This document shows, one piece after another, positions 12,430 to 60,920 of a DNA stretch of 64,000 nt (positions within the stretch are counted from its first letter, which is position 1; the number at the start of each line of letters is the position of its first letter). This DNA comes from Aplysia californica (Eukaryota). The stretch covers positions 961,679-1,025,678 of the forward strand of contig NW_004797451.1 of the NCBI RefSeq assembly GCF_000002075.1. Direction: 5' to 3'. The translations under genes were made by a program, and so were the position numbers. The notes below the pieces were generated by a model, which searched no databases, was not told the origin of the DNA, and was given only the letters and a program-made list of their open reading frames with translations.

Positions 12430-15400
12430 AATAATAATAGTAGTAGGAGTCATTATAATAATGTAGATCATTCTTATAGCACCCACTCTCATATGAACAC
12501 AGCTCTGTGCACTTTACTCAATAAATGTTTTTTTTCTCCCCCAGATCTAAATCAAGACTCTGCTACGTTCGGAGGGCTGCCATTTTCTTACTTAGTGTTT
12601 GACGTAACTAACTCTAAAAATATCCTGGACGGCACAGTTGTACTCAGCTTCAGAACTCTGCTGACAGAGGCTTTGCTCATGTACGTGCACGACCACAAAG
12701 GGAACTTTGTGCAGCTGGAGCTCAGCGATGCCAAGACTGTCACTGTCAGCTACAGCAACTACAACCAGATAGTCAGGGACTCCGTCACCACGAATGGTAC
12801 ATTTTCTTACCTGGTTTTTTTTCCACTTCTTCTTTTTTACCTGTTTTTTTCCACTTCTTCTTTCTTAAGTTAACTGTTTTCTCTCTTAGCTTTATGCTTT
12901 TTTTTCCCCACTTAAGCTTTCTCATCTGTCTTTTTTTAAAATTCAAATTATGCCTTCTTTTCACTATTGTTTTTTCAATTATTCCCTCTTTTCATGTTTA
13001 ATCCATGTGTTGTCGGCAAGCTGTCAAGTACAACACTCGGCACATGGGTTACAAAAGGGTTAAGTATAGTGTTAAAAGTTATTGAGGTTCAAACCACCAT
13101 CCATTCATTCACTCTTCATCTCATCATGAGTGTAGATCTGATTTTTATTGATTTTATATTTTGTGATCTGGTGCTATAGTGAAATATCTTAAACTAGTAG
13201 ACAAGAAATTGGGTGATTTCCCCCCTTTAGCTGCCTTCCCGGTCATCTCTGGTTGCCTCATGCATCTCAAGACTAGGGAGTCTCGGAGTCTGAGTAAGTC
13301 TAAAATCTGGTGCTGTATTTTCAGTGCCGCTCAACGACGGTGAGTGGAAGCAGGTGGTGGCCGAGAACTACTACAACTTCACCCGTCTCATGGTGCTGGG
13401 GTCGTCGAAGGTCATAGAAGTACGACGGGGAAGGATACAAAGTTATTCTCTCGACCCGTACTATGGAAGCATATACCAACGTAAGATTGTTACACATACT
13501 ATCTCTTGACCATTGTCATGGAAGCATTTTAAAAAGTTATTAGTGTTGGCACTTACACTCTTAATAAAACTAAATTATCAGTGTAAGACAGTGGCTGTCT
13601 CTAACACTGTTTTGTGGAAGTATATATCAACAAAAGGTTGTCAAGCAACATCATGTTCCCTCTTTTCTGACTTATGATTGGTCTTAGCATACCTGCATCT
13701 GTGATAAGTAAGAGGCTTTTTAATTTTAATCAAGAATGAACACAAAGTTTTTGTCTGGACCCTTTATCCCGGAAGTTTATATTAAAGTAGGATTATGTAT
13801 TACATGAACTGCTTCTTCCAGTTTAGATTGGTGTTAGCTTTCCTCCTTCTGTGATAAGTAGTTAGCTTTTTGTTAAAACAGTTTCTGTTCGTTCAAATAA
13901 AGCCACATATCTAATGTATTCTCATTGCTGTTATCCCAAAATAGGTTGAGAAAAAAAGAAGTGTGTACAAAACGTAGCTTAAAATGTCTCTTAAAATATG
14001 TATTACATAGTTTGCATTGATTGTGATGCTTAGAGAAGTTTGATGAAGACTTGCAGGTTGAATACAAAGCTCTATGATATCATTGTTGCTTTTCAGCTGA
14101 TTGTATTTTCATTTTTATCGGTAGTTCTATAGCATGTCTCATTACCAATAGTCTTGTGTGATTTATACAACTCATTTTAATTGTTGATCCTACCACATTT
14201 TCTGTTGTTGCTATTGCTAATATATAGTCATTGTTGTAGTTGATAAAGGCAATGATCCGACACCTATTCAGATTTCTCTCTGCTGCTCAACGCCATGAAG
14301 TGAAATGTGTATGTTCCGCTGTTAATAGATCTGTCAGAAAAGCACTTTGCCCTTTACCCATGACTCGTCTCCATCTCCCACACTCATAGAGATGGTATTC
14401 ATCATATCTTTCCATCTCCTAACTCTACAAGGGGCACACCAAAAGTTTTTTCCCTGACCATGAAGGAATAAAGGTAGATAGCTGTGTAGTGGCCTCAAAC
14501 AGTTACACTTTTTTGCCATCGGTGTAAGACCTTGAAAATAGAAGACCCTCTCATTGTCAGAAAACCAGCCCTCTACCGCTTCTTTGACCTCATTATCACT
14601 TTCAAAATGCCTTCCTTTAAAATCCTTTTTCAGTTTGGGGAATAAAAAAAGTAGGATGGGGCTAAATCTGGAGAATAGGGTGGATATGGCAAAATTTCAT
14701 AGCCACATTCCCGCGCAGTTTTGGCAGCCTTTCTTGGAGTGTGTGCTGGCGCATTCCCGTGAAGCAGCAAAATGCTTTTTCGGATCTTTCCGGTGCATTT
14801 CCTCTGCGTTTTTCTTTAATAGCCTCTCATAATTTTTTTACCTGGTTAGAATAATGGTCTCCGGTGATCGTATGTCCATTTTCAAGATAAACTGTCATAA
14901 TCACTCCATTTTGGTCCCCCCAAAAATGATAGCATCACTTTTCTACTTGATGGCTGCACTTTTGCTTTCTTTGGTGTGGGAGATGAGGTGATTTCCACTG
15001 CATTGATGCAGATTTTGACTCTGGATCGAAGTGGTGGACCCATGTCTCATCCATGGTAAGAAGTCTTTTAAAAAAAATTAGTTTCATGTTGTTACTTGCC
15101 TTGCAAGAACAAAAACTTCATTACTGCCCTCTACTCAATTTTCTACATTTATATGTTGAAACTGGAGAACAACATACCCTTGTTCGCTTACTGTATGTTG
15201 GTGCTAAAACCTGAGATCGGAAATTTTCCAAAATTTACATGCAATCTAGGAAGATAATTTTTGGCTTTCACCTCAAATTTCAGCTTTCTACCTTTATTCC
15301 TTCATGGTCAGGTAAAAAACCTTTGGTATGCCCCTCGTAAAGGTTGCTCCATCTATCCACACTTAAACCCATTTACACTTGGTATCTTTACATCTCCTAG

Positions 15401-17447
15401 CACGAAAGCTTTCTCCGTTCATCCACGCTTATGTTCTTTACACACTTCATCTTTCCATCCCCCACAATCACAGAGACGGTTTTCATCGCACGACCAGCAC
15501 TGATGCCTGCTCCGTTCATTCATGCTTACATCGGAGGGGTCAAGGACGGTGCGTCTGCTACAGCACCGCTGGTCGGTTGTGTCAGGGGAATGAGGATCGG
15601 AGACTACGTCTTCCATCTCTCTCAGACGGCTGCGGAGTTGGGCAATGATACATGTACGTACTGTATGTTGTTATGACTGGAAGAAATATGTATAACTCTA
15701 TTTGGCTATGTGTGCGATAGACGATGGAATGGGTGGTTGATGGGTGCTCTGGTATTTTTTTGCTCCATCTTTCCTATCAAACATCTATCGTCATCATCTC
15801 TCCTCCGTCTTTTATTTGTGCTTTACTCTTTTGAAACACCTCTAATCTTCAGCACTTATATGATCTATTTGTGTTGCGAGTGCAGTAAAACTCTTACTAA
15901 AACCCCCCTAAAAATTTAACAAGATGTTGGAGTTACTCTTTGTCTTGTAACCATGATTTTGTAAAATCACTGGTCACCTCTAACCACCAACATGTTCCCT
16001 CCCTGTGTCCATGCAGTGGTCTCAGACAAGTGTGAGAAGGGCTGCGACGAGGACACCTGCCACAACAACGGCTTCTGCGAGGAGCGCTGGAGAGACGGAC
16101 AGTTCCATTGTGACTGTGCCGACAACGGATTCTCCGGACACAGATGTGAAATAGGTATACAATTTGTTGAACATTTTATGATGTAAGCATGATTTATTTC
16201 ATTTTTTAGGCAGACTCAGCTTCAGCTCTGCCAGTCAGATGATTAAAAACCAGTTGAAATTGTCAAAGACAGCGAGTGGGCGGTTGGCGGGTGCTCTGGT
16301 GTGGTTTGCTCCTTCTTTCCTATCAAACATCTATCATCTTTATCTCCCCTCCTTCTTTTTTGTGTTTGTTACTCCTTAGTAACATCTCTAATCTTCGGCA
16401 CTTATATGACCTTATTGTGTTGCAAGTGCCGTAAAACTCTTATGGAAAAAAAAGACAGCGACCCAATGTCAAGGAGAAAAGTGGCTGTCTTAGAAAGGTG
16501 GTATTGTGTGAGCACTGATCTCCTACCCAAGCTTGTGTGTTAAAGGTGAATGTGTAGAAATATCAATTAGTATGAGCATACAATATGGCATGTGCAGTCT
16601 ACATTGTGAAGCTGACCTACTGTTTATGTGCTTTCAAAGTTTCACACGTTTATCAACAGCAGTTGACTAGTTTTTATGATATTAATAATAATAGATAGTA
16701 AATAGCATTTACATAGTGCATACCCCCGCTCAACAGCAAGCTCTGTGTGCTTTACATTATATTATTACCCCAGCAGACCATAAAACACTCTGAAACATTC
16801 TCAGCTTCCCGGGAAGGATACAGTGCAAGCAGCTGATTAAGCGCCCAAAAACTAAAAAACTGACAAGATCTTTTGTTGTCTAAAGCTTGGTACCCATTCT
16901 CACGTGGGTGAAGTGAGGAAAATTCATGTAAAGTGCCTTTCCCAAGGACACAATGACGGGCCCCTGACAGGATTTTTGCCCATGACCTTACAGTGGTGAG
17001 TCCGAGAGCCTAACCACTAGGCCACCGACACCACCACTCGTTCATTTGAACATACAGTCGGACCTACTCTTATAGTCACCTGTCCAAGTGATTCATTTAT
17101 ACTGACGGCCACTTCCCACTTTCCTTCTTGCATTTTTTTCTTCTATAAAGACATTACCCTAGATGTTCTCATGTCTGAAAAAACACTTATCTCCTCCACA
17201 ATGGCTGGCTGTCTTGAACAATTTCAACTTTATGTGTTTTTTTCTCTGCGAGGTTAACCCACTGATTATTTACAATTTAAATGTCCTGCGCGTATTTGTA
17301 GCAGTTTTCTAAGTGATACACTCATACAGGTTGACACAATGATATATCAATTGTACATTGTGAGGCTGACAGTGTAAGCATTGAGTCACTGGAGAGTGGG
17401 TGCTATAGAAGTGATCGTTTTTATTATTATTATTATTTTTATTAATA

Positions 17448-17485
<38 letters not shown>

Positions 17486-20400
17486 ATAATCATACCATTT
17501 ATGTGCATTCAAAATTTCCAGTTCATATTAAAATGGCAATCGTGTGTTCTGATGTGGTCCTCTGTAGAGCCCTCGGTAGAAGTGTACGGCAATACGGTCG
17601 TGCGACACGCGTTTGTGCTGCCCGTGATGGACCAGTACAGCCTCAGCGAGAGCCTGACCTTCCGCTTCAAGGCCAACCCCATCTCGGAGGTCGCTGACCC
17701 TATGATCATGGCTTACATCACAAGCTCGCAGTGAGTGGCTCACATCAAGTGTTTTATAATACCTTAGAAGGAGACAAATAACATGATCACAGCTCATGTC
17801 CAGTGATTTATTATACCTTCGAAGGAGACAAATAACATGATCACAGCTCACATCAAGTGATTTATTATACCTTAGAAGGAGACGAATAATATGATTATAG
17901 CAGCATGCATAAAGTAAAAATGATCACAGCATAAATCACAAGCTCTCGGTAGAGTTGGCCAATTTTCTTACAATGGTTTGCCTGTTTTATTTTTTGAGAC
18001 TATTGAGAGACTTTGACTTTCCCCCCAGGTCCAAAGATTACATCATGGCAAGACTTGACCCTTCTGGGAGTGTGATGTTGGAGACAAACCAAGGAATCGG
18101 GATCTGTGAGTAACGCACTTTGTGTTTTTTGCCTTTCATTTAAGAAAGTAAACTACCGTATATCGCCATGAATAGGTTGTATGGATGGATAAGATGCAGG
18201 CACACTTGAGAGCAAAAACTTTTGTATAAATCAAATGTTCGTTGGATAAAATGCACCAACTTTTTCATGGCACTCACCATCACTATAGTGGATTTTTTAT
18301 TAATAACCACACTTCAAAACAAAACAAATTTAGGTTGTTGTTTTTTTATAACTTGTTTTTAGTCAGCCATCTTAACTCTAGATATACTACAGAGCAACAA
18401 GGAACAGCCATTTTGTTTTAAGGTGATGATGTCCAGATTTTGTGGCATCATTTGCGTTCATTGTTTGCAAATTGAGGAGATTTTTGTAAGTATACAATTA
18501 AAAAGGAAAAAGAAGAGACTGGGGAGTGAATGAAGCTCTACATGAATCACTGAAAATGTGTAAATAAGCTCCAAAAAAAGAACAAATACTAATGAGAAAA
18601 AAGTGTTACGTTTTGCCCATTTTCTTTTCTCAGATCGAATCAAAGTCACTGGCAAGTTTGCGGACGGAAAACCTCACGACTTTGTCTACATCCGGGAAGG
18701 TTCGAACATGTACCTTAAGGTCAGTTTATTAAACAACTGTTTTGCCCATCATAGACTTTTCCAATGTGAGGAAGGCTACTTCCACAACCGTTGATGTCCA
18801 AAAACTCATTTGCTGTAAATTTCTGTTTGAAGTGTGTCACTAATTTCTGAATTTTGTAAGCTTAATGTTGCTAATTTTATCATTTCTTAAGCTTAACGTT
18901 GCTAATTTCTTAAGTTTTTAAAGCTTAGCATTGCCATGTACAGGGCTTATCATGGGCCAACATACATTTTTCTTTAATTGATCAGTATTCCTGAATAATT
19001 TGCTTACATTCAGCTGAGATGTTTTTGTAATTGTGTCGAGAAACTTTCAGGTAATTCCTCCTGCTTCTTGTTGCTTTGGGACACATTTCACATTCCACCG
19101 TAGACTTGACTGTGTGTAAAGTTAGGATGGTAGAGTGTGCACAGAACATACAAGTATTTATTAAGTTGCATATTTATAAGTGAAGGAATGCAAGCCATAG
19201 AGCAATTTGCAAATTAAACTTTTTAGTTACTTTTCTAAAAATGCACAACTGCACCTTAGGAATCAAAATCGTGCATGGCATTATTTGCATGGCTTAGAGG
19301 TGGTGTGTTTGATAATGATGTAGAACTCACACATCCATTCTCTATTCCCTGAAAGTAAACACTGTGTCTCTCAGGAGTTGAGTTCTGTGTCGACGTATTG
19401 TGCATAGTGGCATGCTGTAACTCTGAGAACAATTCCGAATGATTCAAACTGAATTATATCTGTTGTAGAGACTGGTGCAAGTCCTCTTTTTTTACTGTAG
19501 TTTTTCCTGTGTGTCTCCACTCCCATTTCGTCGTGTCAGTCGAGAGCTTTCAGATTTTCAAACGTGCTCCAAAAACTGCAGAGATAGAATGTTTTATCAT
19601 TTACAATGTTTCAACCAAATACATTTATTTTAGAAGACTACTTGATGTGGTGTTTTTGCAGAGGCTGTACCTTTCCTGATGCAGCATTGTTTAAGCACTT
19701 TGTCTCCTTTGCCATAAATAGCAGTTCTGACAATCACATTGTAAGATTTTTAAATCACAGAAGTTTTTGGAGCATGAAAGTAGATGCTTTTTAGTGTCTT
19801 TTCAAGTAGAAACTGAAATTGACAGGGTTTAGGGATTAGAGACAGTAGACAGGCGGTGGGGGGGTGGTTAAATCTGTGTTGTGTCTAGTGTTCTATTACT
19901 CTCGAACAGCATGAATACAATGGAGGAGAAATACTTGAGTGTGGTGCACCCTCTCCAAGCAGAGCAGTTAGAGCCAGAATGGACAAAATTTCTCAGCATT
20001 TCAGCACGGGACGGTGTCGCAGAACGTTGCTCAAAGGAAAATCTCTTTGTTAGCTTTGTTATATTACTATGCTTCTGTGGGTATCTGATGAAGCATTGCG
20101 TGAAGGGAAGTTCCTTCTTTAGTTTTGTTTTATTGCTATGCTCCTGTGTGTGTGAAGGCAATGACTCATAGATGTGTCCCTGATGAGTTACCGAGTTCCT
20201 TCTCCGAGACCACCCGAGGGAAAACTTGTCTAACCTGTACTTTATCTTTGCATGCTGTCATTATGTCCATCAGGTGAAACCTCTAGATCCTTATGGAAAT
20301 GTGATAGTAAGTACATGTCATCATGATTGTCACGGTATTCATGCCAGCTTTTGGTCGCTTTGCTTTCAAATCTTCAGGCTGCTCATTTTTCAACTTCGTA

Positions 20401-23400
20401 TCTATTTAGCCATTTCCATATAGCTCTTTCCACATAGCCATTTCCATATAGCTCTTTCCACTTAGAGTCATTTCCATTTAGCTGTTTCCACTACACAGTT
20501 TTTTTACTTTTTTCTTGGCATTTCTAGAGTCCTTTTCACTACATTTTTTATACTGCTTTTAGCAAAACTATTTGTTATGGCTTTAGATTTTGGGGGTTTT
20601 AGTTTGATCCTTATGTTGTTCACTCAGTGAAAAAACTGTTAAAATTTGGGTAGAGATAAGATTGAGAAAATCACCAAAAGTTTGCATTTACAACTTCAGT
20701 AGGCCTATAGGAAATATTTACCTTTTTTTTTCAGTGCAGACACTTGCGCTTTTTTGAGGGCTGTTTTGTGTTCCAATTTTTGTTTCCTTCAATGTTCATA
20801 AGTGTGTCACAAATGACTGTTGTCAGTGACAATGCATGTGTTTATGCTCGTTTAAGTCAGTTAGAATCCTCTGTTAATGTCTGTATGAGTTGCTCATATT
20901 CATTATACTATAGTATCATGGGAACATGTAACTGACCATGCATCATTTGAGATAACAAATCAGATATTATGAGTAAGGAAAAACAGCCCACTAGGTGCAA
21001 TTCAGTCATTTATAAGATATTATCATATAATAAAAATTAATAAACAATTTTTAGTAAAGGCAGGGGGTGGGCATGGGGGTGGTAATCTGTTGTTGTAAAA
21101 TTGACTTTGTTCCTATGAAGAATCCTGCGTAGGGACAGGCTTAACTCAGTAGTTATAGGGTGAACTCCTGTGGAGATAGGTTTAAACCGAGTAATGATCC
21201 AATAGGTTTAACTCCATTAGCGATAGGTTTAACCCCAGTTTAACCCCAGTAGTGAGAGATTTAACCCCAGTAGTGATAGGTTTAACTCCTTTAGTAACAG
21301 GTTTAACTCCAGTTTAACCCCAGCAGTAATAGGTTTAACCCCAGTAGTGATAGGTTTAACTCCTTTAGTAACAAGTTTAACTCCAGTTTAACCCCAGCAG
21401 TAAAAGGTTTAACCCCAGTAGTGACATGTTTAACTTTATTTGTAAAAGTATTAACACCAATAGCTGTGGTTAGACATTTGCTTTTTTTGTCCTGGATCAG
21501 TTCGGCTCTACTTACGTTCAACTGACATGTTTTCGTGAGCTAAATACAGGACTGTATATAATATCCATGTAGTGCTACTAGGTCTATAACATTTTTTAAC
21601 AAAGGTGAAGACTTGAAGAAACACTTTGTCTTAATCAAGCCTAGAAGCTGTCTCACTCCTTTAACATAGTTTATAGATGCTGCATGGTTGAAGACATTTC
21701 TTCTTTTTCGCATAACTTCTGCGCTGTATTTGGTGGCCTCAAGACTATTCACAGGCCTGTACATTGTGTATTTAGAATGATGTGCGTACATCCACAGTAT
21801 GTATTATTGCACGTTGTAGCCCTATCAGTGAATCCTGTACCACAAGTCTCAATTGTGTCCCATTTTTTAAATTTTAAATCCAGTGCGATTGTAGTTCACT
21901 TTTTTCTCTTGAAGTCTGAAGTAAGGATATCTTAATTTTCATTGTCATTGGTTTAAGTCTTACATTAATAATTCTTACATTAATACTTCAAGAAAGATCA
22001 ATTACAGTTTTGATTTCAAATTGAATGTAATGTCATACCTAGAAGACTTTAAAACTTCTTTTAATAATTCCACCCCATCCACCCCCCTCCCCCGAAGAAA
22101 ACCTCAGAAAGGTTGTATAATAGCCAAAACATATGTGATTTATTTTTGACATTTTGAGAAACGATCCTTTATCTTTCCTGAAATATTTAATGCAAATTCT
22201 GTTGTTTAGGCTTTTGTACAGCCTTTTTCTAATGGTTTTGTAAAAATTTTGGGCATCTTGCAGCTTCAGTCGTGTATCCAATAATGTTCACTGTATCCAG
22301 GCAAGTTGAATTATAAGATTTTGTCAAGCTGAGTGGTGTTAGTTTTACAGTGATGACTGCTACTTGATAGTTCTACTTTAGTCAATTAGGGTAAGAGAGA
22401 GAACAGTCTGTAGTTAAAGAATGAAAGCCTTGTGATTGTCAGACAAAATTTGAAAATGTTTTAGAATAGTTAGCTCAGTAAAGTTTTTTAAATGACATAA
22501 TGGTCAAAGTTTAAACATGAGTCCTTAGATTAACTTGGAATTCTCCCATTGCAGTTGGAGAAAGCGTAGTGAAGCAAAATAAAACACTTCCATTCATCAT
22601 TTGTGCAACTGCTAATAAGAATTGGTTCAGAGGTATTTTGATTTGTTTTTAAGATTATGAAGTAAAGGGAACAAAGGAAAAAGAAGAGATGTCAGTTTTT
22701 GGATAATTTGAGTCGTGACATGTGTTTATGCACCTCTTCTGCCTAAAAGTTGATTAGTCGCCCAATATCAGTTGGGAAAACATGGGCTGTTAAGTATTTC
22801 ATTTTCATTTTTCTAGAAATATCTAATGGTCACATCCTTTATTCTTCCCTTGCGCCTTTCAAATGCTTTATGTTCACATTTAAGTAATTTGATCTTTTAA
22901 GGAGCAGGCTGCTTCAATTCAACATTCCTAATCAGGGGCAACCCGGGCTGTCTGATATACAACATCCCTGCAGACCAACTGAGATATTTGATCTGAAAAC
23001 TTCCCCACCTGGGAATCGAACCCATTTCCTTTTTGTGCAGTGGTGAAGAGCTTAACCATTAACTCCCAGAGACCGGTGTAGACTGGGTGCTCAATGTTTT
23101 GGCTTAGTCTCCATCATTGCAGACCAAGCCGCTGACTTTTTGGTTTGTGTTTGTCTCTGGCAGGTGGACCGGATCAAAGAAGCAGACATCAACTATCCGG
23201 ACTATCCCCTGAACAGCATCGACACAATCTACATCGGGGGATATGTACAAGATCACAACGATATTCAATACGTCTCAAACTTCTCTGGATGTATTTCAAG
23301 TAAGTTTTTTCACTTCAATATTATCTTTTCAGTGTGTTGTGTTTTAGCGCATATAAATGACTACTTGCACCGCATGCTTCCCAGGAAGTTGAGGTTGTTT

Positions 23401-25458
23401 CAGAATGCTCTCAGGTCTGCTGGGGTAATAATATAGATTTTGAAGCTCATAGAGCTTGCTGTTGAGAGGGGATTTGCGCTATACAAATGCTATTTATTAT
23501 TATTTTAATATTACACATTCTGAGTTGAAGCAGCCTCACCCCTAAATGATTTGAATTGTGTTGATGGGGGGGGGGGGAATTAAAACCATTTACACTTACA
23601 TTTTCAGGCTGGTATTGAGACTGAATGAGAGGTACTGTCCTCATATTCAGAAACTTGCTCTTAAAACATCTCAATGAAATGGTTCTTGTCATTCAGAGTG
23701 TTTTTGGAAGTTATTTTGGTATTCCCAAGAATTCTTTTTCAAAACAAAGAACAAATTTGTTCATAGGTCTTTCATAGGAAGCAAACTTAGGTGGGTGGTC
23801 ACCTGAACTATAAATCTTTATTGCCCAGATGCTGACACATCAGCTTGGTGTTTTACCAAACACACACACATACACACACGCACGCACGCACACACACACA
23901 CACACACACANNNNNNNNNNNNNNNNNNNNNNNNNNNNNNNNNNNNNNNNNNNNNNNNNNNNNNNNNNNNNNNNNNNNNNNNNNNNNNNNNNNNNNNNNN
24001 NNNNNNNNNNNNNNNNNNNNNNNNNNNNNNNNNNNNNNNNNNNNNNNNNNNNNNNNNNNNNNNCATATAATTAATTATTTTTTTTAATGAAACGGTTTTT
24101 CTTCTTTCTCCTGGAAAAAAAAAATATAGCTTTTGGTCTTATAGCATAAGAACATCCTGCTAACGCACTGTTTTTCGTTCCAATGTCAAAAATGACAAAA
24201 TACAAGATACTACAAAACAATAAAAGTAGTAACTTATAATAGTGTAAATGGACGAAAACAGGCAGGCTTGGGGAGTGAGAAAAGCGAGAAAAAAATCAAG
24301 AAGAATAGAATTCAATGTCAGACCAGATAATGTGAGGATAACAAAAGCATGAAATATATAGAAAGCAAAGTCACTGTATGGCGAAGAAAGTGAAGTTAAG
24401 AAAATTTTGAAAACGTTCGTCATTGCCATGTAAATCGTCGGTCAGGTGTTCTGACCGATACGTACTAAGACCAAAATTTGAAATTAAAATTTTTAGATTA
24501 ATTTTGCTGTTAAAATAACAACAGTTTTATCGGTTGCATATCCCTAAAAATATTTTGTCGAGGGTTAAAATCTAAATGAATTTAAAAAAGACATAATAAT
24601 ATAGGTAGGCCTACAATTATTAAAAAGCAATGAATAGTTTCTTTTTTTATCTTTCTATCTCTATTAAAAATGTTGCTTTTTGGGCTTAGCACATTTGAAC
24701 AGCATGCCAACGAAATATATATCATAAATTCTACCTTGAATAGTCCACGCAAGAGAAGAAATTGCGACCGTACAGTCTGCCCTCATCTCGCTGCTATACG
24801 GTTGATGAGTCTTCTCTACTTCAAGGTACGCACGTCTCAGCAGCTCACGGTGTATCTCTGTCTAACCACATAGGCACAGCTCGCTGGTTTTTGTTTTGCT
24901 TTCTGCGTGGGCTAACTACGAGTTACTTCGTGATGAATACTGAGACAGAAAGGTTTTTCTCTTTCATGTTTTTTTTTTTGTTTTAGAAAGAGCGTTATTG
25001 TTAGATTATGAGAAAGAATAAACAAGAAACGAAATTAGTCCAGTTCATTCTCCTCTAAAAATCGCTTTTACCTTTGAATATTTTTCGGCACAATTTTTCT
25101 CTCTCTCCATTGTTAACAGTCACAATTTGATTATAAACTTGTATTGTAATTGATTGTTGAGTAAACAATTTCTGCACACAGATTTCTCTAAAACAATCAG
25201 CTGTTCCCAAGAAGTCCGGTCTCGACACACGACACTTGAGTTCATGAACTTGAAAAATCTGGCGACACAGCCGCAGTAGCTGTCCCCGACGGACGTGGCC
25301 TCCGAGAGTGAGTGAGAGAGAGAGGGGGGAGAGAAGAAATCCGCCCTGTTCTGTGATGAAATACGTGTGTACAATAAATAAAGAACCGCGACACGGCGCT
25401 AAGTTCACGGAACGCCGTCACCGGGAGAAGAAGAACCGAGGAGAGATCGTCTGTCCTG

Positions 25459-25493
<35 letters not shown>

Positions 25494-28400
25494 CGTGTGT
25501 GTGTGTGTATCGTCTGCTAGCTGCTGCTGCTGCTGCTGTCGCCGTTGTGTACCGTACGGGAATGATTGGTTGGTTGGTTGGTTGGCTGTGTTGGCCGATC
25601 GTACGGGTCGGGAAAGACTAGACGACTCATTCATTCGGCGAACCGTCCGTGATTTTTTTCCCATGCGCACCAGGCCTCGCGTACCCTGCTCGACTGTCTG
25701 GTCTGACTGGGATCATAATTGCCTGGTGCGGTATGGTTGGGTGAAAGTGAAACAGATTAGAAAAAGGAGGCGCAGCACATACTGCGGTACAAATATTTAT
25801 TATCAATTAATTGTTATCTGTTCAGGAAATATCCGCTCTTGCTTGTTGTGTACGTTCTCGTAAGAGGACTCGAGTCTAGGGTAATCACGGAGGTTCGAGC
25901 AAATCGAAATCGATTTCATAGTCTGTGTTTTGTTTTTGCTGGGTAGATCTAGATCTAGATCTAGTTTTAAAAATTTAAAAATTATTATTATTATTATTAT
26001 TTTGATAACTCCGATTAGACACGGCGTTCAAGCCCAAAGACACGAGTGCCGTGACCTTGCACTCCCTGCGAGACCTGTACCTGGACGTGAAGAACATCGA
26101 CGTGCTCGGGGACGAGACTCAGAGCTGCAGCACCAGCGACACAGACAAGGCAGAACCGACTACGCCACCCATGAGTGAGAAAGTCACACCAGGGACCCAC
26201 ATGGTCAGTTATGTCACTTTGTGCGGTTTTGTCTTCTTCGATGTTGTTCGGATATCCCAGTGTCTCAAAAAGTCTTGTATCCATCAAAGAAAGAAGTAAA
26301 AGCGAAAAAAAGAAAAAGAGAAAGAAAGAAAGAAAAAAAGAAAGAAAGAAAGAAACAAGAAAGAAAAAACGAAAAAAAGAAAGAAATGGCACTTTATTAT
26401 TTCTTGTGGGGAAATTCGGGTTACAATGGCAAATATACATACATACATAAAAATACATATTTAAGCACATATGCTTACAAAGAATACCAAATACACAATA
26501 TTACACCAATGCAAACTATTTTACAATTATGCCATGCTGGTTGCCACTGTTCAGTTGTAGTTAAACAGTGTGGACTGTTAATCTTTTCATCTGATCCTTG
26601 TGTACTTAGCATGCTACTGAGAGTATCGCCAATTTTATAGCTTGTTGACCTCATTGCAGGACATCACAATGCCTCCGTGGCTGGACAGCGACATTGAGAT
26701 TGTGACCTTGGGTGCGGCTCCGAACCAGGGCAGCCCACCAACCACCCCATTGATCTTCACCAGCACCAAATCGGGCAAGAACAACACACACCTGGTGGTT
26801 CTACAGCCCAGCTCAGAGCCTGTTGATGACATCACAATCAGTGAGAACTTTGTTTATTTCGCGGGCTGTAAAAATAAGCGTAGAGGTTTTAATGTCCCTA
26901 TCAATACTATTAGGTTATTTAAGAGGTGGTACCTCCGAGTCTAGCATCCATCTCCGAAAGGACCGAGCCAAATGGGAAATGGGTGTAAAGTGTCTTTCCC
27001 AAGGACACAATGTCGTACTGACCTGGGGCTGCTTTGACCTTCCTTATCAGGGGCAACCTAGGCTGAGTGGGGTAGCCTACAACATCCCAGCAGACAGATG
27101 GAGTCACTTGATAATATAACTTCCCCACTTCTGAATTGAATCCCATTTGAGCAAGATATTCCATCAGAATGTTCAAACTTTGTTTTTGCCTGTAGGCTTT
27201 TAACTCTTTGAGGAAGCTCATTCTTGTCTTTCAGCAACACTTAAGATGCATTGTTTTGGAGCATTTTTTAAAAAACAAATTGTTAAATTTGATTTTTGTA
27301 AATCTTAAACTTGAAAAGGCAAACTACAACACACATTTTGTAAAACATGCGAATTTGTGCCTCTGATTTGTGTAATACAGATCAAAATGTGCCACAACAT
27401 GGCCTTTGGGCTCTGTCAGACATAAGTTATGTGTTCGATACACCCTGAAAGATTCAGCCTCCTCGTAATGTCCCCACTTTTCAAGCTAAGACGGAGCACA
27501 CACCAGGAAAAAGTGTTGGGCTAGGTTTTCTCTTTTCATGTTTTTTTTTTGTTTTAGAAAGAGTTTTACAGTCCTTACAACACTAATAAGTCATATAAGT
27601 GCTGAAGATTAAAGGTATTACTAGAGAATAACTTACAAAAAAAAGAAGAGATAAGGATAATAGATGAGCAAACCGTAACAGAGCACCTTCCAACCACCCA
27701 AAGACTTGAAAAGTGTTAAAAGTGGGGAAACACTATTTTTAATGAATGCAGCCTTATTGTTTCTATCTCCATCCCCAGTCATTGTGGTGTGCGTGATTGC
27801 AGCCATCTTGATCATCAGTTTGTGCGTTGCTCTGGTCCTTGTGCGGCGTCGGAAGAAGCGACAAGGAGACTACCTGGTCAAGAAGGAAGGCGAGGCCGAC
27901 ATGGAGCTGAAGCAACCTCTGAACCACAACGACTCGTCTCCGTATGGCGGGCCAGCCCCGTTCACATCCCACACCATGCCTCGCATGTCTCGCCCCCGCC
28001 CGCCGGCGGAGACAAACAACAAGGTTCCGTCAGATCATCTGGCCAAGCTGGATGAGTTCAGCATGATCTCCGCCATGCTGGGTCCCAGGAGTAAGACTCT
28101 CTTTTTTTTTCTATACCATCAAACTTGCTTTAATGGACATTTATAAGACAATTACCTGTACAAACAGACATTTAGGGGGCTCTTGTGGCCTAGAGATTAA
28201 GGTGTTCGCCTCTCATTCAAAAGGTTTGAATCCGGGTAGCAATGGGAAAATTTTCTTATCTGAAATTGTCTCCTTTCACCTTCTTTCCTTCTCTCTTGCA
28301 ATACTCTGTCGTCTGCTTTTGTCTCCAGTTTCTGCCCCCACCCCTACAACTCCTTTGCCCCCTACGCTGGACTCCTGACTCTTTCTGCAGCCTTTCTACT

Positions 28401-31400
28401 GCTACACCTTGGCTCCTTCTTACTGCTGTCTTTCAGCAACACCCCTGATCTTCTGGTAGGAAAGATCTACACCTAGCCTTCTTGGACAAGGGCGAAAAAT
28501 CTCAGAGGTCCTGTGTGCAAGTTGCGCACGCTTAAGATCCCTTGGTGGTCCAAAATGGATAAGAGTAGGCTTCAGCCGCCACCCGAGCAAAATTCAAAAT
28601 TTCCTACCAATTGAAAATGTTTGGTGTGTCCCGCACGCTCATATGACCTTATGCAGTTGCGAGCGTCATAAAATTTTTTTTTTTTAAACCACAAAAAAAA
28701 TAGCCATTTCCTGCTTCCTCCCTTGCGTATTTCTAACATCATAATGACACTGTGTAAGACGTCCACCTGCCTGGGACTACCACTTTTCTTCTTGCTTTAG
28801 ATCATTTTTATTGTATCTTTTTATGTTATGGAATTCTAATCTTCTTCTTCTCATTCTTCAGACCAATTATAGTTTTGATTTCAAATTGACTGTCATACCT
28901 ATGAGACTAAACTGTCCTGGTCTTTTCCTGTCACCCATCTCGTCGAGATCTCTTAGGAAGTTATTTTCCGTCTATCTCTGCCTCTTTTTCATCTTATTAT
29001 GTTGAATAATTATAAAAATGTTATAACTCAATTTACACTTGTTTACATACATAGCTATGTACATAAATACATACTTGCAATAATTTTTCAACATTACACA
29101 GTTCACAATATTACACCATCAAAGACAAACAAAATCGAATTTTCCGGTCATATTTGTCCAGCACCTGTTTTTGAGCAAGGAATTATAAACTATGAACTCT
29201 CTGAACATGTAGATTTCAATGAAAAAATTCTGTGCTTGTTTCTCCTAAACTTTGCCTGAATGTTTTCAGGGCCTAAGGCAGACACTTTGCCCCACGACCC
29301 GTCTAAGCAGAGATACAGCCAGGGAAATTATGTGAGTGCCATGACAAGTTAATGATTTTTGCCTTACTGCCTGAAACTAGGCGCTTCACATGTAAAGGGT
29401 TAGGTGACAAAATGGGGTATCTCCAACTCTTTATCTTCTGTTTTTCTCACTGTAGATCATTTGATTTTTTAATCTTATCTGAGTTTAAATATTTGTTTTC
29501 AAAACATGCTGTAATCAATGATTTTGCATCTCCGACTCTTTATCTTCTGTTTTTCTCCCTGTAAATCACAAGTTTGATTTTTAATCTTATCTGAGTTTAA
29601 ATATTTTTTTTTCAAAACATGCTGAGACCATTGATTTTGTACAGCTTTGATTCAGTGTTTTCTCCATCGGCAAACGGATCAAACACACTGAGTGAAACGA
29701 TCAGCTCGTCCTGTGTTGGTCACTTTGTGGACATAATATGTCTTCTCTTGTCACAATACCTTTAATTCATATCTTTCTTTATGTCTCTTAATCTGTTTAG
29801 AGTAAAGTGTTTAAGAGATCAGAAAATCAGAAAATACTACAACAGATTTTCCATGCTAAAGTAGATCTTTTTCTGTTTGTGTTGAAGTAAATGGAATTAA
29901 TGCCACATTATTATTTTTTTTAATATGAAAAATAAAGCGATAATGAATGAAAAGGTCGTCATATGAAAATTTGATGTGACTAAAGTATTACATAGTTACA
30001 CAAGCCAGTAAAGACTAGTCCATCAGGAGTTGGAATTAGGCCTGCTCTTACTGACAAGGAAAACCAAAAAAAGACATATGTGAGACATATTGCATGTCTT
30101 AACTTGTTCGGGACATGCAGTCTGGTCATTCGATTTTGTCACTTTTTAAAGGTATTTTGTATATTTCAAAGAATACGCAACCATCAAAATAATTCCTAAT
30201 AAAATGCATAGAAGACAAATAAATTAAAATCCTTTTGAGTTAAGGTTCAGACATGATGGAACTATTGTCTTTTTATAGGAAAGCATTTTGTTTGAAAACA
30301 TTTTCTTTCCATTTTCAAAATGTAGCTTGAAACAATGTAAGCGGACTTTTTATCCACTTCTCCAGACACACACACACACACACATATTTTCATCTTTGTT
30401 TCCCTCTCCTAGCCTCTGACGGATGATGAGGTCGACTTTATCAATCCCATCTACAACGCAAGAAAACAACGACCGGCTTCCTCCATATCAGAGGTCTTGG
30501 AAGAACTGGAGAGACGGCAAGTGCCACTTCCTAACGGTAAAACGTCAAGATCTGATTTATCTAAACTTTCTTATGTTGGCAGGAAAATGGTAAAAGATAT
30601 CAGTGCAGCTGGTTTCTGTTTACTTTCTCAGGCTAATAGGAAAGTGGTAAAACATTATTGGCAGTTTGGAAAAGTAATAAGAAATAAGGAGACTTGTGGG
30701 CTGCAGTTTGATCTATAGGCAATCCCAAAATAAATGGTAAATATTTCACCTAAAGGACTTCATCAGAAACTTAATAACACATGCTTTAGCCAAATCAGGT
30801 TCTGAAGTATACCTTTCCTGCCAAATCCTTAGAAAAAAACACTTTACACAAATTTTAAGTATTTCACCCTGGTAAGATTGGGTAACTGACTAAAAACTAT
30901 GAAAGATCTTTTCTGTACGTTCATCTTGGAGCATTTGTTAACCCTGTAACATCACAGTTTGTGTCAAGTGCTTTTCAAGATTATTTGAGAACATTTATAG
31001 ATCTGCCAGGGTAATAGTAGGCCTACACTGTTCAGTGCATAAAGCATGTTTACTCTCAGCAGGCATATATGTTAATTAANNNNNNNNNNNNNNNNNNNNN
31101 NNNNNNNNNNNNNNNNNNNNNNNNNNNNNNNNNNNNNNNNNNNNNNNNNNNNNNNNNNNNNNNNNNNNNNNNNNNNNNNNNNNNNNNNNNNNNNNNNNNN
31201 NNNNNNNNNNNNNNNNNNNNNNNNNNNNNNNNNNNNNNNNNNNNNNNNNNNNNNNNNNNNNNNNNNNNNNNNNNNNNNNNNNNNNNNNNNNNNNNNNNNN
31301 NNNNNNNNNNNNNNNNNNNNNNNNNNNNNNNNNNNNNNNNNNNNNNNNNNNNNNNNNATTGTTATTATTTTATTTATTATTGTTATTATAATTTTTTTAA

Positions 31401-34400
31401 AATATTATTGTTATTATTATTTTATCATCATCATTATTATTGTTATTATTGTTATTATTATTATTATTATTATTGTTTTAATTTATGATTATGATGTAAG
31501 ATGGTAACTAAACTGAAGAGCACCATCTCGTTTTTGCCAGGTACCCCAGCCCTAGAGGATCCGGTCCGGCGCAGCCACGGCGAGGGAGAGCTGGAGTGGG
31601 ACCACCAGGCAGACACCACCACGCCCGCACACAATGTGAGACTTCTCTCTCACTCCGCATCACTGGGTCTTTGTTGTTTTCTGCACACCTGTCTAGTCAT
31701 GTACATTTGATTTTCTGTGTTTGCGATGCAGTCTAAACTTTTTTGAGGGTGTCTTGTAAAAGAATTGAAGGCAAAAAGCTAGAGATAGGGGTAGCTCAAG
31801 AGTAGGTTAAATAAGGAATGAGGACAGATGAGCGACAGAAAAAAAACCCAACCCTGAATGATATAGGGGATGTGTTTTATAAAATATCTGACCAGAGAAA
31901 TGAATATTGAACCATGGTTGCCAATGTTTGAATTTATTGATCTCCATGAAGAGAAATTTCCTGAGGCATGGTAAAAACATACACAAAAATCAGTGTTTCA
32001 TCTGTCTAGAGATTGTCTGAACTGTGAATCGTGGGAGCACCAATGAATACCCTGTCTTTTGATCTTATCCTTGGAGAAAACACTCTGATATCCGTCTGAT
32101 CAGAATTTGTGAACGCGGGGATGAATATGTAACCTCTTGTATGTGCAGGCCAGTGTATAACTCTGAGAATAATCACTCTTTTGTGCAGGGAGTTGCTCCT
32201 GTGGAAAAGCAACAAGGATGATTTTGGCGCAGCGTGGGGCAGAGGGTCAGTTATTGGAAGGTGGAAAGCTACCATCTATTCAAGCAGGATCTCTTCCTTG
32301 CTCGCTTTTCTCACTAAGACCTTAAATTTTTGCTCTTGTTGAGTTGAGATGCATCTCGGGGTCTTTCCCGCTTATTCCATCATTCAGTTGCAAACCAATT
32401 TCCCTGCTTCGACCTGGACTAATTTGAGACTGCGAATGTTGACTCTGTTGAGGATCAGCGAGCGCGCTGTTCGGCCATGATGTGATTTGATTTGCCTTGA
32501 CGTCTTTAGGAACAATGTGGCAAAGAAAAAATGGTGCTGCTGCATGAGATTCTTTATCATAAACTGACAGCTTAGCTGATTATTTTCTGATAATAGCATA
32601 GCATAAAAGAAATACTTTTATTTATTCCTGTTGGGGGTGTATAAAATACAAACTTTAATAGTTTTTCAATGTTACGTATGACACAATACCCCATAAGTAC
32701 AGACAATCAACATATTATTTGTTCCATTCTTAGATCAAATGAGGTTCTTTTTAGACTGTTTTGGATGCATGACCACTTTGTTTTGACCTCTTTGCTTTCA
32801 ATGTGCTTTGCTGCAGATGTTTAAGACTTTCGTTTTTATCAGTGCAAAAATTGGGTCATACACTTTTATTTGCTGCAAAACCATTATCATTACTTGGTGA
32901 TTTTCTGTGTACTACTTTTGAACTACTTTTCATAACAGATGAATAATTATTTAAATTCTAAGCTGCTTTTAAAAAAAATTCAAATTCAAGCAGAATTTAC
33001 TTAGTGGCGTGGGCAGTTTTGTTTTCACTATAATTACACCAACAGCTTTTGCGGGTCAAATCATATCTCAGTATCTGTTTGCTTTTATTCTTCTTCGCAA
33101 ATATGCATTTGTCTTGAAGTCTTTGTCTTATTTGATGGTCATCCAACTTATGCTTGATGTTTACTCAGTTTGAGACACATGCTGAATATCTTTAAAAAAT
33201 GTTACTCTCTGATTTGGTTTTCACACCAATATCAACAAGTTTTATTTGTTTTCACACCTGTATGATCAAATTATATATTCTTACGAAAGAGACGGGCGAC
33301 ACATTTGAAAGATGGTTGTGGTCTTTTTTATTTTTATTGTTGTTGTTTTTTTATTTATACAATTATTTTTTTAACAGTTGCTTATTTAAGTTGTTTTTCT
33401 GTTATGTTAATCACCATCATCCCATCAGGAACCATGGGTTTGAGTGGAGCTGCGGTCAAAGTCTGAATATTGATCCCTGACTTTGTCCTAAAGCAACTCT
33501 AGTAAGGAAGTTTCTTTGACAAATGAATCACTCAACTTCTCTCACTGTAGGAAGACATCATGTTTTTCAATAAACCTTTGCTGGGCCCAATTCCTGATGA
33601 ACTAGAAGAGTCCCATCTCAGCAGTTTCTCGGGCCACCCGTCAAGTTTTGGGGGTGACAGCTACCAGGTTTGTGCTGAGTGTAACTGTCCCTAGGATCCT
33701 CACCCTACTAGACTTGTTTGTGGTTCCGACTGAATGCTGTGTCTTCCACGCACCATGCGGTGTTCAGCTTATGGTGCATAGGCTGCTGTGTAGCACTAGC
33801 TCCTTATCATTAGTGATGTACCTCGTTTTAGGAGATTAAATTTCAATTGTACCGAGTAATGAAGCATGAGAAGTTACCGTCTGAAAGAAGTGAGGAGTCC
33901 ACGGGAAAAACGTGAATAGTCACAAACTGAAAATTGTGAGTGTATCAATCTTGAATGCTTGTTGACTCATAACAGTATTTCCATTCAACTGTTGATTGAT
34001 TATTGTCGTTAGATTTCCCATTCAACAAACAATAATTAACCACCAATCAAACAAATATGAAGTTATGAGTCCACAAGCATTAAAAATTGACACCCTCACA
34101 AATTCCAGTTTCTGAATATGCTCGTTTTTCCTGTGGACTCCTCAAGTGGGAGTAAGTCTCTATTATAACAAGATCCTTGTCTAGAATTAAAGAATTAAAT
34201 GCTAGTAAATGTTTAGAGTGCTGCGGAAATCAGAGTGGAGAAAATATACAGTTGAACTTGCTCTAACGGCAACCTGTTCAACACAGTCACCCGTACCAGT
34301 GATCTCTTCCTATTTACCCTCTCACGTTTTTTTACATTATAATGGCCCTGTCCAAAACGTTCACCTATCTATGACATCCAATTTTCTCTTGGACAATTGA

Positions 34401-57271: not shown

Positions 57272-59075
57272 CCACACATGTAGAGGCAATGACACAACAC
57301 ACATGAGCACACACACTGTATGAGAAGCATTTCAGAAACTGGAACTGACCTGCAGAGGCAAAAATCCTCCGGCCGAATCCACTATCATGACAGAAGGCAC
57401 TCTGTTCTGAAAACAGATCTCCTGGGTGCGTAGCCCTTTTGTAACAGATATAGGATATATCGCACCACCCTTAAAGGATCCATCATTTGCGCAAACCATA
57501 CAATATGTGCCATGTATTTTTCCAATCCCTGGAAAAGAAGAGACAGATAACAACAAAAATAATGTCAATAGACTTTAAAAGCCATTTTTAAAAGAACCGA
57601 AAAGTGTTAAAGAATTAGCACAAAATAAATCTGAAACCCATACCTTGGAATATAGGGATTTTGTTGCACTTACTGTGTAACGATGCTAATACTGGCCACT
57701 AGTTGAAATATTAGTGTAGTTTTTTGTTTAAGGGTTGTTGTTTTTTGTTGTTTGTTTTTGTTGTTTTTTTTTTTGGGGGGGGGGGTCCAGCACTCAAAGT
57801 GGGACTGTACTTGTTACAACTTTGGTGTGAAGAATCTTGAAATTTGCATCCACTTTCATGATCTTAGGATCTCAAAATGACCTTCCAAGCACCAAAAGAC
57901 TTTCAAAATGTGAATCATCCCCTCCCCTCCTCTTTTCCTTTCAGAACTAGCGCAACAACAAAAAAAAGGTGTTATAATAAGCTAAGCGATCAGAAAGACA
58001 AAAAAAGATCACTGTGCAGCCAAAATCCTACTGTAGTCTAGTGAGACCTAACAAAATGAAAACCAACACCACATTCGTCAGCCATCCCTGACTCCCTGAC
58101 ATCAATCTGTCCCCGTGGTTTTATGCACACAGCATAATTTAGCAAAATTTGATCATTTTTTGCATAATTTCTGATTATTTTCCTTTATCATTCTTTGTTA
58201 AAATTAACAGAATCGCATAATTTCACATTTTTGGGCTCAGTTTGCATAATTTCAGAATTTTTCTTGCATAAAACAACGGGGACAGATCAATTCATATCAA
58301 TATTGTGTACTAAAGAATAATATGAGGAAGGTCTTTAAAAGGAAGAGATAATCAATAGTTCTCTCAAAAAAGTGCGCTGAAATTATTATCATTAAAATAG
58401 AATATAGACTATATACAATGTACTAATGGTAAATTTTCACTTTCACTCCGGTACACAATGCTCTGCTTTGAGGGTCAGACTGCAGTATTATTTGTTGCAG
58501 ATCACACATAGCCACTAAAACTGTCACAAATCAATTGTTTTCAAGAAAATTTAAAGCCAACAGCAAAACATCAAATTATAAATTAAAACTTAAAACAAGG
58601 TATGCCCCCCCCCCCTGTAACCCCCCATATTTATTCCTTACTTCAGGAGGGTATGCCCCCCTGTAACCCCCCATATTTTTTTCGAAGTGACTATTTCTCC
58701 AAACATTCGGGAAATTGAACTTGGACTCTATTTCTCCGAACGGTTTCCGTTCTCGACATTTTTTGGGGTTTTTTGCGAGATTTCGGCGTCATCTTTCAGT
58801 CTGCCATTCTGCGAGGACTGGGAAGAAGCAATTTTTGCATCGAATTCAATTTCTAGAAATAGGGATTTTTAAATGTCTGAATATTCAGATACTTCAGTTG
58901 CGGTTGGGGCAACGTTCCCGGACTATACTTCATTTGAAAATACCTTCAAAAGGTACTGCGAGAAAACAAGACTGATCGAACTTGGCAAAAAAACTATTTT
59001 GCATTTAGTCACCCAGCAAAAACTAAAATCCTTCATGTAAAAAAAAACCCCTTCATGCCCCGCCCCGTTCACACC

Positions 59076-59132
<57 letters not shown>

Positions 59133-60128
59133 CACACACACACACACATGCACACCCACACGGGCCACTCCATTCGCAATTATTATCAACAAATCTCGAG
59201 AATGGAAACCGTTCGGAGAAATAAAGTTCAAGTTTATTTTCCCGAATGTTCGGAGAAATAAGGCCTATTTTTTTTCTTACTTCAGGAAGGCATGCCCCCC
59301 TGAACCCCCTCCGCGATAGGCTTCGTGTGATAAAGTTCCATTATAAACCGTCAATTATTTTTAAAACTATTGTTTGCGATGGAAATGAAGTCGATATTCG
59401 AGTTCAGCGTTTCAATAATAATATCATAGAAAATGGACACATTCTATAGTACAGTAAATGTGAAAGGGGTGGGAAAGTAGAAAAATACCGTACTAATTGA
59501 TCCACATACCATTCAGATAATTGGCTCTAGGGACATGTCCATAAGGCATACCCACTCCACCGATCAGAGACAGCTCAAGGAAGTCGTCCATATCATCAAT
59601 AAGTGCCCTTACTCTATCAGTTACCATCATCTTCCCATGCTTTTTTACATGCCTTTCCATAGACTTTTCTCCTCCCCCTGCCAGAGCAACAGCTTCGGCT
59701 TGTCTGTACATATCTTCTGTTTTCTTAAAACAAGCAGAGTTCTTCACACTTTGTGGACTGTTAATGTTTATTGCAGCTTTGTCCTCCTCAACAACACGTA
59801 GAGGCTTGGAGCTGGCACGAGCATTTGGGCTTGGTTTGCTAGGACTATAAAGTCTTATGTGCCTTTGAAAGAGTGCTGCAAATCCGTGCAGCCTATCACC
59901 AGCAAGAAAAGAGTTCCTATTGCAGCTACTAACATTTTTTATCAAAAGTCTTTGATAAGACGCAAGCCTGCTGTAGCATTTACTTATGCAGGGCGGTTGC
60001 TGGAATCTCAATCTCAGTGACAATGAAGAATTTGGTCTGCTGATGGTGGGTGCTAAACATCTGAGATCACCAGCTCTGCCTCTAGGAGTAACGAGATAAA
60101 CCGACCCTAATCTCGTCGCCATCCTCAT
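49652..60128 (-). CDS. Methylcrotonoyl-CoA carboxylase beta chain-like carboxyltransferase (MCCC2-like paralog) with mitochondrial-type N-terminus; at least one exon missing in an N gap
   Basis: Exons 60128-59510, 57528-57350, 56336-56086, 55230-55032, 54343-54252, [gap], 53114-52993, 52367-52269, 50667-50533, 49729-49652. Motifs: [81 protein letters not shown]-terminal VLRM*. Confidence 0.9.
49851..50025 (-). mobile_element. ~170-bp headless retroposon family B; other copies at about 15730-15900, 16276-16445, 27560-27700(-), 45040-45182(-), 45930-46084(-), 47677-48290 (interrupted), 48435-48585(-)
   Basis: Shared start GGTGGTTGGCGGGTGCTCTGG and 3' stem-loop; this copy is flanked by ATCAAACTCT direct repeats. 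Confidence 0.75.
50533..50667 (-). CDS. Gene 2 exon
   Basis: [24 protein letters not shown]; phase 0-0. Confidence 0.9.
51157..52151. mobile_element. ~1-kb TA-flanked non-autonomous DNA transposon (Tc1/pogo-like ends)
   Basis: Imperfect 24-bp TIRs (CAGAAGTCTCCGTCTAAACACATG vs CAGTAGTCTTCACCTAAATGCATG); CpG-rich interior. Confidence 0.5.
52269..52367 (-). CDS. Gene 2 exon
   Basis: [21 protein letters not shown]; phase 0-0. Confidence 0.9.
52993..53114 (-). CDS. Gene 2 exon (first after the gap)
   Basis: [33 protein letters not shown]; phase 1-0. Confidence 0.88.
53173..53983. other. N gap that should contain at least one coding exon of gene 2
   Basis: The flanking exons end in phase 2 and resume in phase 1, and the conserved GIVANNG..HFIQLC..FLQN segment is absent. 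Confidence 0.8.
54252..54343 (-). CDS. Gene 2 exon 5
   Basis: [31 protein letters not shown]; phase 0-2. Confidence 0.92.
55032..55230 (-). CDS. Gene 2 exon 4
   Basis: [21 protein letters not shown]; phase 2-0. Confidence 0.9.
56086..56336 (-). CDS. Gene 2 exon 3
   Basis: [32 protein letters not shown]; phase 0-2. Confidence 0.93.
57350..57528 (-). CDS. Gene 2 exon 2
   Basis: [30 protein letters not shown]; phase 1-0. Confidence 0.92.
58107..58285. mobile_element. Small MITE
   Basis: CTGTCCCCGTGGTTTTATGCA / TGCATAAAACAACGGGGACAG TIRs; ATCAAT on both sides. Confidence 0.7.
58691..59261. mobile_element. Foldback element with ~70-bp TIRs and internal (CA)n
   Basis: TATTTCTCCAAACATTCGGGAAA.. 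is the inverse of ..TTTCCCGAATGTTCGGAGAAATA. Confidence 0.7.
59510..60128 (-). CDS. Gene 2 exon 1
   Basis: ORF 59493-60128; R/S/L-rich presequence followed by the MCC-beta N-terminus; donor G|gtatgt. Confidence 0.88.
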
Positions 60129-60920
60129 TTATGGAATTCTTTTGCAAGAGAAAAACTGTGCATCTATAATGTTATGGTCCGTTCCGATACTTTCAACTTT
60201 CACCAAGAACAACTACAACTTACACACTGACCGGAATGCCGGAGAGTGGGGACCTGAGGTTACTCTCAGGTTACTGGATTTGTTTGTGTGGAACAAAGTT
60301 CATGCCCTCTCAACCGGGCACGGTGCTCTGGTTGCAAGTGTATCCTTATAATAATTATGACGAATGCGGAGATGAGAATGATGAGGTCTTGGTTGCTTTT
60401 GTATCAAATATCTGTCCAAAAAATTCTGGACGAGATCGTAATATCAGTGTAAGCCATAAAGTGATAGTAAGCCAAAAATATATTTAATTTCAGAAAGCAC
60501 AAGTTGACAGATGTCCCAGTATCTTGCACGTACCTGCGGCGGGCAGCCCCTTCTGTGATTCAAAAATTAAAATATACTCAGAGGGCACCCTGTCCAGTGG
60601 AAACTGAGTAAAAAGCATGAATCATGAAAAGATGATACCAGTAGGCTTTTATCGATATTGAACAAAAGTGTTTTATTTATCAATAAGATATGACACAAAA
60701 TCATAAAAATAATTTGACCTTCCCACATCAGTGTGTGCCACAAAACATAGAATTCTGTGGTATGTATTTAATTTGAGATACACCGCAATGAACCGGAAAC
60801 TTTCATAGTCGGCAGTAAACAAACGAAAAGAAAGTGGAAGTCAGATGATGTCTGTGTTATAATAAAAGCTGTTCTATCCTCTCAACTTCCATTGTTATTT
60901 TCGACTGCGAATCTCATGTA
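60129..60920. promoter_or_regulatory. Bidirectional promoter region between gene 2 and gene 3
   Basis: Divergent ATGs ~790 bp apart, raised CpG, ETS-like CCGGAA at 60231 and 60793; a GC-box lies in gene 3 intron 1. Confidence 0.65.

Follow-up and report, generated by a model that had tools for sequence, protein, structure and literature searches.

A 33-nucleotide cassette exon in the last LamG/LNS domain of an axotactin-like protein of Aplysia californica: conservation across gastropods and possible neuronal control

The 64,000-nucleotide (nt) stretch of Aplysia californica DNA analyzed here (assembly GCF_000002075.1, contig NW_004797451.1, positions 961,679 to 1,025,678; hereafter "the window") contains the 3' two-thirds of a gene of the neurexin family, and within a long intron of its last LamG/LNS domain lies an exon of only 33 nt. 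A preliminary description of this DNA had proposed that the exon is hidden from gene predictors, is switched in neurons, and resembles the insert at splice site 4 (SS4) of neurexins. The locus thus raises the question of whether the exon is a genuine optional element, what it does to the domain, and by which factors it may be controlled. Coordinates are those of the window, and features lie on the plus strand unless stated otherwise.

The exon occupies positions 20274..20306 of an intron of 4444 nt (18720-23163), has the borders cag/GTG...ATA/gtaagt (donor GTAAGT at 20307..20312, preceded by the exonic ATA), is in phase 0 at both ends and encodes a peptide of 11 amino acids (aa). The upstream exon (18634..18719) ends with ...GSNMYLK, i.e. 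strand beta9, and a phase 0 donor, and the downstream exon (23164..23299) starts with VDRIKEA, comprising the beta9-beta10 turn and beta10, with no intron at the position equivalent to SS4. The earlier coordinates all hold, namely those of the exon, the CTAAC at 20230, the donor end at 18719, the acceptor before 23164, and the TGCATG motifs at 19272, 19286 and 20833. The exon is, however, annotated rather than hidden, because the RefSeq protein XP_035825667.1 includes its 11 residues (aa 1468-1478); it also figures among the isoforms listed for other molluscs, so the exon itself is present in databases. We found no description of it in the literature searched by title and start of abstract (subscription journals and bioRxiv supplements lay outside this search), and the supplements of papers on molluscs or on microexon evolution could already list the event.

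Eight of 24 public RNA runs were examined: five contig runs from five studies and three runs of raw reads (X21-X23). Three of the eight give no coverage of the exon, two show inclusion only, two skipping only, and one both forms. GT..AG joints for inclusion are found in X7 (depth 59), X8 (9.3) and X18 (108 and 107), and those for skipping in X5 (4.6), X14 (45.7) and X18 (100), the last run carrying both forms at similar contig depth. Because contigs lose minor forms and depth is rough, "only" has to be read as "dominant" and the near-half ratio in X18 as approximate. X7 is labelled as another organism, yet the exon pieces listed from it contain no differing letters, and it was therefore not taken for a second species. 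In X21-X23 the exons were uncovered and no joint was obtained, the reads having fallen on repeats, so that these runs are evidence neither way; most of their reads were taken by a high-copy transcribed repeat at 23374-23504, after the downstream exon. We discarded a variant-free stretch around the exon in X18 (20014-20423) as evidence, as a longer one exists at 18735-19523 among the entries listed (all but four). Since spliced joints exist for both inclusion and skipping, the exon is more than a chance likeness: both splice forms exist and their ratio varies between samples, and the claim of a genuine, alternatively spliced cassette is borne out. A mere pseudo-exon had been considered, given six AG..GTRAGT candidates of 9-60 nt within positions 1-36500, but the one at 20274-20306 possesses joints and orthologues. 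The exon stretch is single-copy in the Aplysia genome.

The host gene (422..36560) has 31 coding exons in the window that match aa 427-1973 of XP_035825667.1 (P0001), a 1973-aa A. californica protein found via the downstream exon and named "contactin-associated protein-like 2" in RefSeq. The protein has six LamG domains, EGF repeats, a fibrinogen-like part, a stalk, a transmembrane segment and a long tail with a GTSV end. The sixth, membrane-proximal LamG/LNS domain is encoded by the exons at 17568..26203 (aa about 1359-1565), and the domain is of the neurexin LNS type (fold match to neurexin LNS with E 5e-12). Insect neurexin matches exon by exon on another contig of the genome (G000:C126) and Nrx-IV on C73, and the contig of the window (C181) is in neither list; the host is therefore a third member of the neurexin family. 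Its mollusc orthologues are mostly named "axotactin-like" in RefSeq, and by these names it would be a mollusc axotactin-like cell-surface protein. It shares the LamG-EGF-fibrinogen-like core with Drosophila axotactin and the Caspr subfamily, but according to Pfam it lacks the discoidin domain of Caspr/Nrx-IV; likewise, Pfam detects no Kunitz domain in it, whereas fly Axo has one. The protein search made for relatives of the host returned no insect axotactin sequence. The Aplysia neurexin itself spans G000:C126:472626-573526 (plus strand, L005), and at G000:C425:224046-225209 (plus strand) we noted an unbroken open frame of 1511 aa that is the top match to insect neurexin and Nrx-IV alike, i.e. 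an intron-poor LNS-repeat gene or a retrocopy.

Comparison of protein models shows that the insert is conserved in relatives of Aplysia. Of 21 named gastropod species, 14 carry an 11-aa insert at exactly the same boundary: Aplysia, Lymnaea, Bradybaena (in two paralogues), two Biomphalaria, Babylonia, Nucella, Littorina, two Patella and four Haliotis. The models of Arion, Candidula, Elysia, Plakobranchus, Bulinus, Batillaria and Gigantopelta, in most cases one per species, lack it. Lymnaea and paralogue A of Bradybaena have the Aplysia insert unchanged (11/11), with 52-57% identity over the remainder of the domain (40-61% over all species compared); elsewhere the identity of the insert declines to 8/11 in Bradybaena paralogue B, 7/11 in Babylonia, Nucella and Haliotis, 6/11 in Littorina, 5/11 in Biomphalaria and 4/11 in Patella. 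All 14 insert-bearing gastropods share V1, P3, G8 and a hydrophobic residue at position 11.

In bivalves an insert occurs at the same boundary in 14 of 18 scorable named species, with lengths of 6 aa (scallops, oysters and three Mytilus species), 5 aa (M. trossulus) or 15 aa (Potamilus, Mercenaria, Mya and Ruditapes); the models of Sinanodonta, Solemya, Mactra and Saccostrea have none. Read from protein models, the bivalve inserts have their position in common with those of gastropods, not their sequence. All four 15-aa inserts (P0017, P0051, the P0052 set and P0054) add an N-X-S/T glycosylation sequon. Both forms are annotated in 19 species (9 of the 14 insert-bearing gastropods and 10 bivalves), and the boundary varies in every one of the 12 multi-isoform species sets compared. 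These counts leave out the Tegillarca and Octopus sinensis models, which do not span the site, seven unnamed proteins (six without insert, one not scorable), and the fragments P0014, P0015, P0019, P0026, P0064, P0157, P0179, P0182 and P0188. A degenerate pattern of the exon gave no matches in metagenome contigs.

Where the insert enters the fold bears directly on its kinship with neurexin inserts. The boundary LK^VD aligns to IS^VD of Nrxn1 LNS2 and to LQ^VD of LNS6, at the end of beta9 and the beta9-beta10 turn, 12 residues before the SS4 position, which agrees with the intron of Aplysia neurexin. In that gene (C126) no intron is present at LQ^ID: the LNS6 exon includes LQIDADMPQTKHPT and stops at its end, in phase 1, 12 residues further on and at the position of SS4; the intron harbouring the host insert and the SS4 intron therefore differ. 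Relative to splice site 2 (SS2) of Nrxn1 LNS2, which lies at residues 379-393 and extends the start of beta9, the insert is placed 4 residues further on (numbering of PMC6856630). In the same report beta10 forms the ligand interface, with I401, T405 and Y407 binding neurexophilin, and the adjacent SS2 insert raises affinity about 6-fold.

We modelled the domain with AlphaFold2 on the natural pair of Bradybaena isoforms, which stands in for Aplysia. Without the insert, beta9 comprises residues 105-110 and beta10 residues 114-119, with a predicted local distance difference test (pLDDT) score of 80.9. With it, beta9 extends over 105-113 and is followed by a turn, a bridge at 119, a three-residue helix (121-123) and beta10 at 125-130 (pLDDT 88.5, and 88-92 in the insert region). 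Since beta10 falls on the same residues, KEANIN, in both models, the insert is predicted to be an ordered add-on hairpin at the surface, with three residues added to beta9 and a protruding D-x-x-G turn, rather than an exchange of beta10.

These data make it very unlikely that the insert is the counterpart of SS4, gating a Ca2+-dependent interface of the neuroligin/LRRTM type. Such a role would fit the position in the last LNS domain of the protein, and in Foldseek the insert model ranks the SS4-containing beta-neurexin structures 3mw2 and 3mw3 first, compared with ranks 25 and 31 for the skip model. We attribute this shift in rank to alignment length, the TM-scores of the SS4-containing entries being no better (0.73, root-mean-square deviation 4.4-4.8) and a third such entry ranking 25. 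The host, moreover, is not a neurexin, its site precedes SS4 by 12 residues, Aplysia neurexin has its own phase-1 intron at SS4 and none at LQ^ID, and the register of beta10 is unchanged. In addition, the Asp that serves as Ca2+ ligand in neurexin aligns, albeit weakly, to Thr/Ser in the host (ligand residues from PMC6160412). Of the proposed likeness to SS4, the location in the last LamG/LNS domain, with the SS4-equivalent position 12 residues on, is retained; the host gene, the position and phase of the intron, the end of beta10 concerned and the absence of beta10 displacement in the models speak against it. As in neurexin SS2 (LNS2) and SS4 (LNS6), a short optional LNS insert flanks the beta9/beta10 edge, but here it belongs to another gene and to the C-terminal end of beta9, and is homologous to neither.

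What might decide between the two forms is suggested by motifs flanking the exon, which exceeds the strict microexon limit of 27 nt. A CTAAC branch-point consensus (20230..20234, at -44) is located inside an AG-free zone of 53 nt, and between it and the AG a TGCATG overlaps two UGC at -25 and -21 (20249..20255). Of the 30 acceptors that the host gene has in the window, none but that of the cassette exon carries two UGC at -30..-6, and this acceptor is one of two that combine UGC, CTAAY and a long AG-free zone. After the donor, four YCAY motifs (at +12, +15, +24 and +33; 20318..20342) fall within +10..+40, compared with at most two at the other 28 donors and with 7 of 1112 background windows of 31 nt that contain four. 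Within 200 nt downstream there are 14 YCAY, as opposed to at most 7 at any other of the 29 donors in all; nine of the 14 lie in a 14-bp tandem repeat (20410..20491) found at a single place in the genome, of which four copies (20413-20483) compare with 0.44 expected matches in the whole window, one more match being at 3342. TGCATG occurs five times in the intron against 1.4 expected and one on the antisense strand, a modest excess (Poisson P 0.016, post hoc); the distal copies (19272..21686) are at 19272, 19286, 20833 and 21681, the last not reported previously. Another, degenerate tandem repeat lies at 21170-21430 of the same intron.

Rbfox bound upstream of an exon usually represses it, and of the factors initially proposed it is the weakest, the one TGCATG within 200 nt of the exon being on the upstream side, whereas the UGC/CTAAC and YCAY set does fit eMIC together with Nova/Pasilla. 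In fly, eMIC exons are characterized by UGC near the 3' site, CUAAY, long AG-free zones and UCUC tracts, and pasilla is the main co-regulator of eMIC targets, with the largest overlap (PMC8797185); YCAY at +10..+40 downstream marks Nova-enhanced exons (PMC4054596). The cassette exon resembles eMIC (Srrm234, SRRM3/4) exons in being short and frame-keeping, with UGC between a CUAAY branch point and the AG (PMC8797185, bioRxiv 10.1101/2024.09.17.613571). In the fly exon table searched, axo appears in one row, with a 533-nt high-inclusion exon. Aplysia has a candidate Srrm234-like gene (G000:C323:552694-557267, minus strand, L006), in which an RS-rich exon ending in ...LDKRRIT is followed by an exon beginning with SARKRPVPYYRP; positions 1-55 and 56-67 of the Pfam family PF15230 find their matches, in collinear order, in two exons that are separated by 4.4 kb and come after the RS-rich region.

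From these motifs, neuronal inclusion by eMIC plus Pasilla appears somewhat probable. On balance we favor, with a similar degree of confidence, the view that the exon is a frame-keeping conserved cassette, likely switched on by Srrm234/eMIC and Nova/Pasilla in neurons, and that the hairpin it is predicted to encode likely alters binding along the beta10 edge. Several observations weigh against this view. The runs carry no tissue labels, so that the included form could equally be non-neural or belong to glia or muscle. The exon differs from eMIC exons in its length of 33 nt and in having no UCUC-rich tract between branch point and AG; AG-free zones of at least 53 nt are common (11 of 30 acceptors), the exon at 6934 also has UGC and CTAAC, 9 of the 14 downstream YCAY stem from one tandem repeat, and the flanking motifs are known from the Aplysia intron alone. 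The eMIC-like match on C323 scores 20.6 and 18.9 bits, where the Pfam cut-off is 27. In Biomphalaria (5/11) and Patella (4/11) the insert is no more conserved than the domain. The models represent a Bradybaena pair, not the Aplysia protein, and the 9-row alignments on which they were built were not the same for the two forms. Finally, we know of no ligand of the host protein.

Part of this evidence could be accommodated by a real, conserved cassette whose switch is not between neurons and other tissues but among neuron classes, glia, muscle or stages, e.g. by Rbfox repression at -25 in some neurons. The samples do span inclusion only, about half (X18) and skipping only, and axotactin in fly is glial. 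In Aplysia sensory neurons, furthermore, the splicing of CaV2 departs from that of the nervous system as a whole, one difference being that a 4-aa exon is left out (PMC10657410). The combination of two UGC, CUAAC and proximal YCAY, unique among the 30 acceptors and 29 donors, is on the contrary what the neuronal code of eMIC and pasilla would predict, and we regard this alternative as rather unlikely, though worth keeping in mind.

Under the favored neuronal reading, eMIC would act on the UGC/CUAAC acceptor and Pasilla on the downstream YCAY cluster, while Rbfox at -25 may oppose inclusion; the resulting hairpin at the beta9-beta10 turn would give the two isoforms different partner-binding properties along the beta10 edge. 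The last step is inferred by analogy with SS2 and neurexophilin. Less likely still than a switch outside the neuron-versus-rest scheme, in our opinion, is an effect of the insert on stability, packing, trafficking or glycosylation of the membrane-proximal domain instead of on ligand binding. The conserved P3, D5 and G8 are structural-turn residues, exposed positions vary, and bivalve inserts are wholly different in length and sequence, the 15-aa ones adding sequons; however, the 11/11 identity of Aplysia, Lymnaea and Bradybaena A goes beyond the need of a bare turn, and the model of the skip form shows a normal fold.

A further parallel is offered by agrin, an unrelated gene, whose Z insert also lies in the last LamG domain, in another loop than the insert described here. 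Its Z exons (Z8 and Z11; Z5 and Z6 in Ciona) are short like the cassette exon, and clusters of Nova-type YCAY in the downstream intron drive them in Ciona (PMC12445529). The Aplysia insert ends with N-V-I, similar to the N-X-I/V motif by which agrin Z binds Lrp4 (PMC12445529), but N-X-I/V is present in 4 of the 14 insert-bearing gastropods and is therefore unlikely to be the conserved feature. The insert would work like the LNS inserts of neurexin and agrin, while being a member of neither group.

The analysis also revealed other variable sites in the host gene and its orthologues. The 117-nt exon at 33551-33667 encodes part of the cytoplasmic tail, and one Biomphalaria isoform lacks the counterpart of this exon; near this site optional segments of 33-45 aa are found in Littorina, Patella, Haliotis, Mya and Mytilus. 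At the boundary matching the partly N-filled intron at 2089-2753, in the third LamG domain, Patella has an optional 13-aa insert near the SS2-equivalent loop. In the second LamG domain, encoded 5' of the window, an optional insert of 4-7 aa precedes RWHN/WHNL in Haliotis, Mizuhopecten, Mytilus and Potamilus (P0131, P0143, the P0155 set and P0017). Elsewhere in the window, a carboxyl-transferase gene (PF01039; about 50400-60130, minus strand), presumably methylcrotonoyl-CoA carboxylase beta-like, is convergent with the host gene, and an intron contains a broken transposase remnant (14334-15117, minus strand), by its motifs probably of the mariner type, one fragment having no Pfam match.

Our findings add to the LNS repertoire a new splice position, between the equivalents of SS2 and SS4, in an unstudied protein of the neurexin family, and show that an insert at this position has remained optional in gastropods as well as in bivalves. 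The candidate eMIC and Pasilla elements provide a ready reporter for the neural microexon program of molluscs, in an animal that allows assays on single identified neurons. More tentatively, and as a possibility rather than an expectation, the exon may represent a neuron-controlled switch invented by molluscs in the last LNS domain of a third neurexin-family protein, which arose independently of vertebrate neurexins and agrin, predates the split of gastropods and bivalves over 500 million years ago, and gates a partner at the beta10 edge. If this is true, it would be a cell-type adhesion code of the sea hare, testable in identified neurons.

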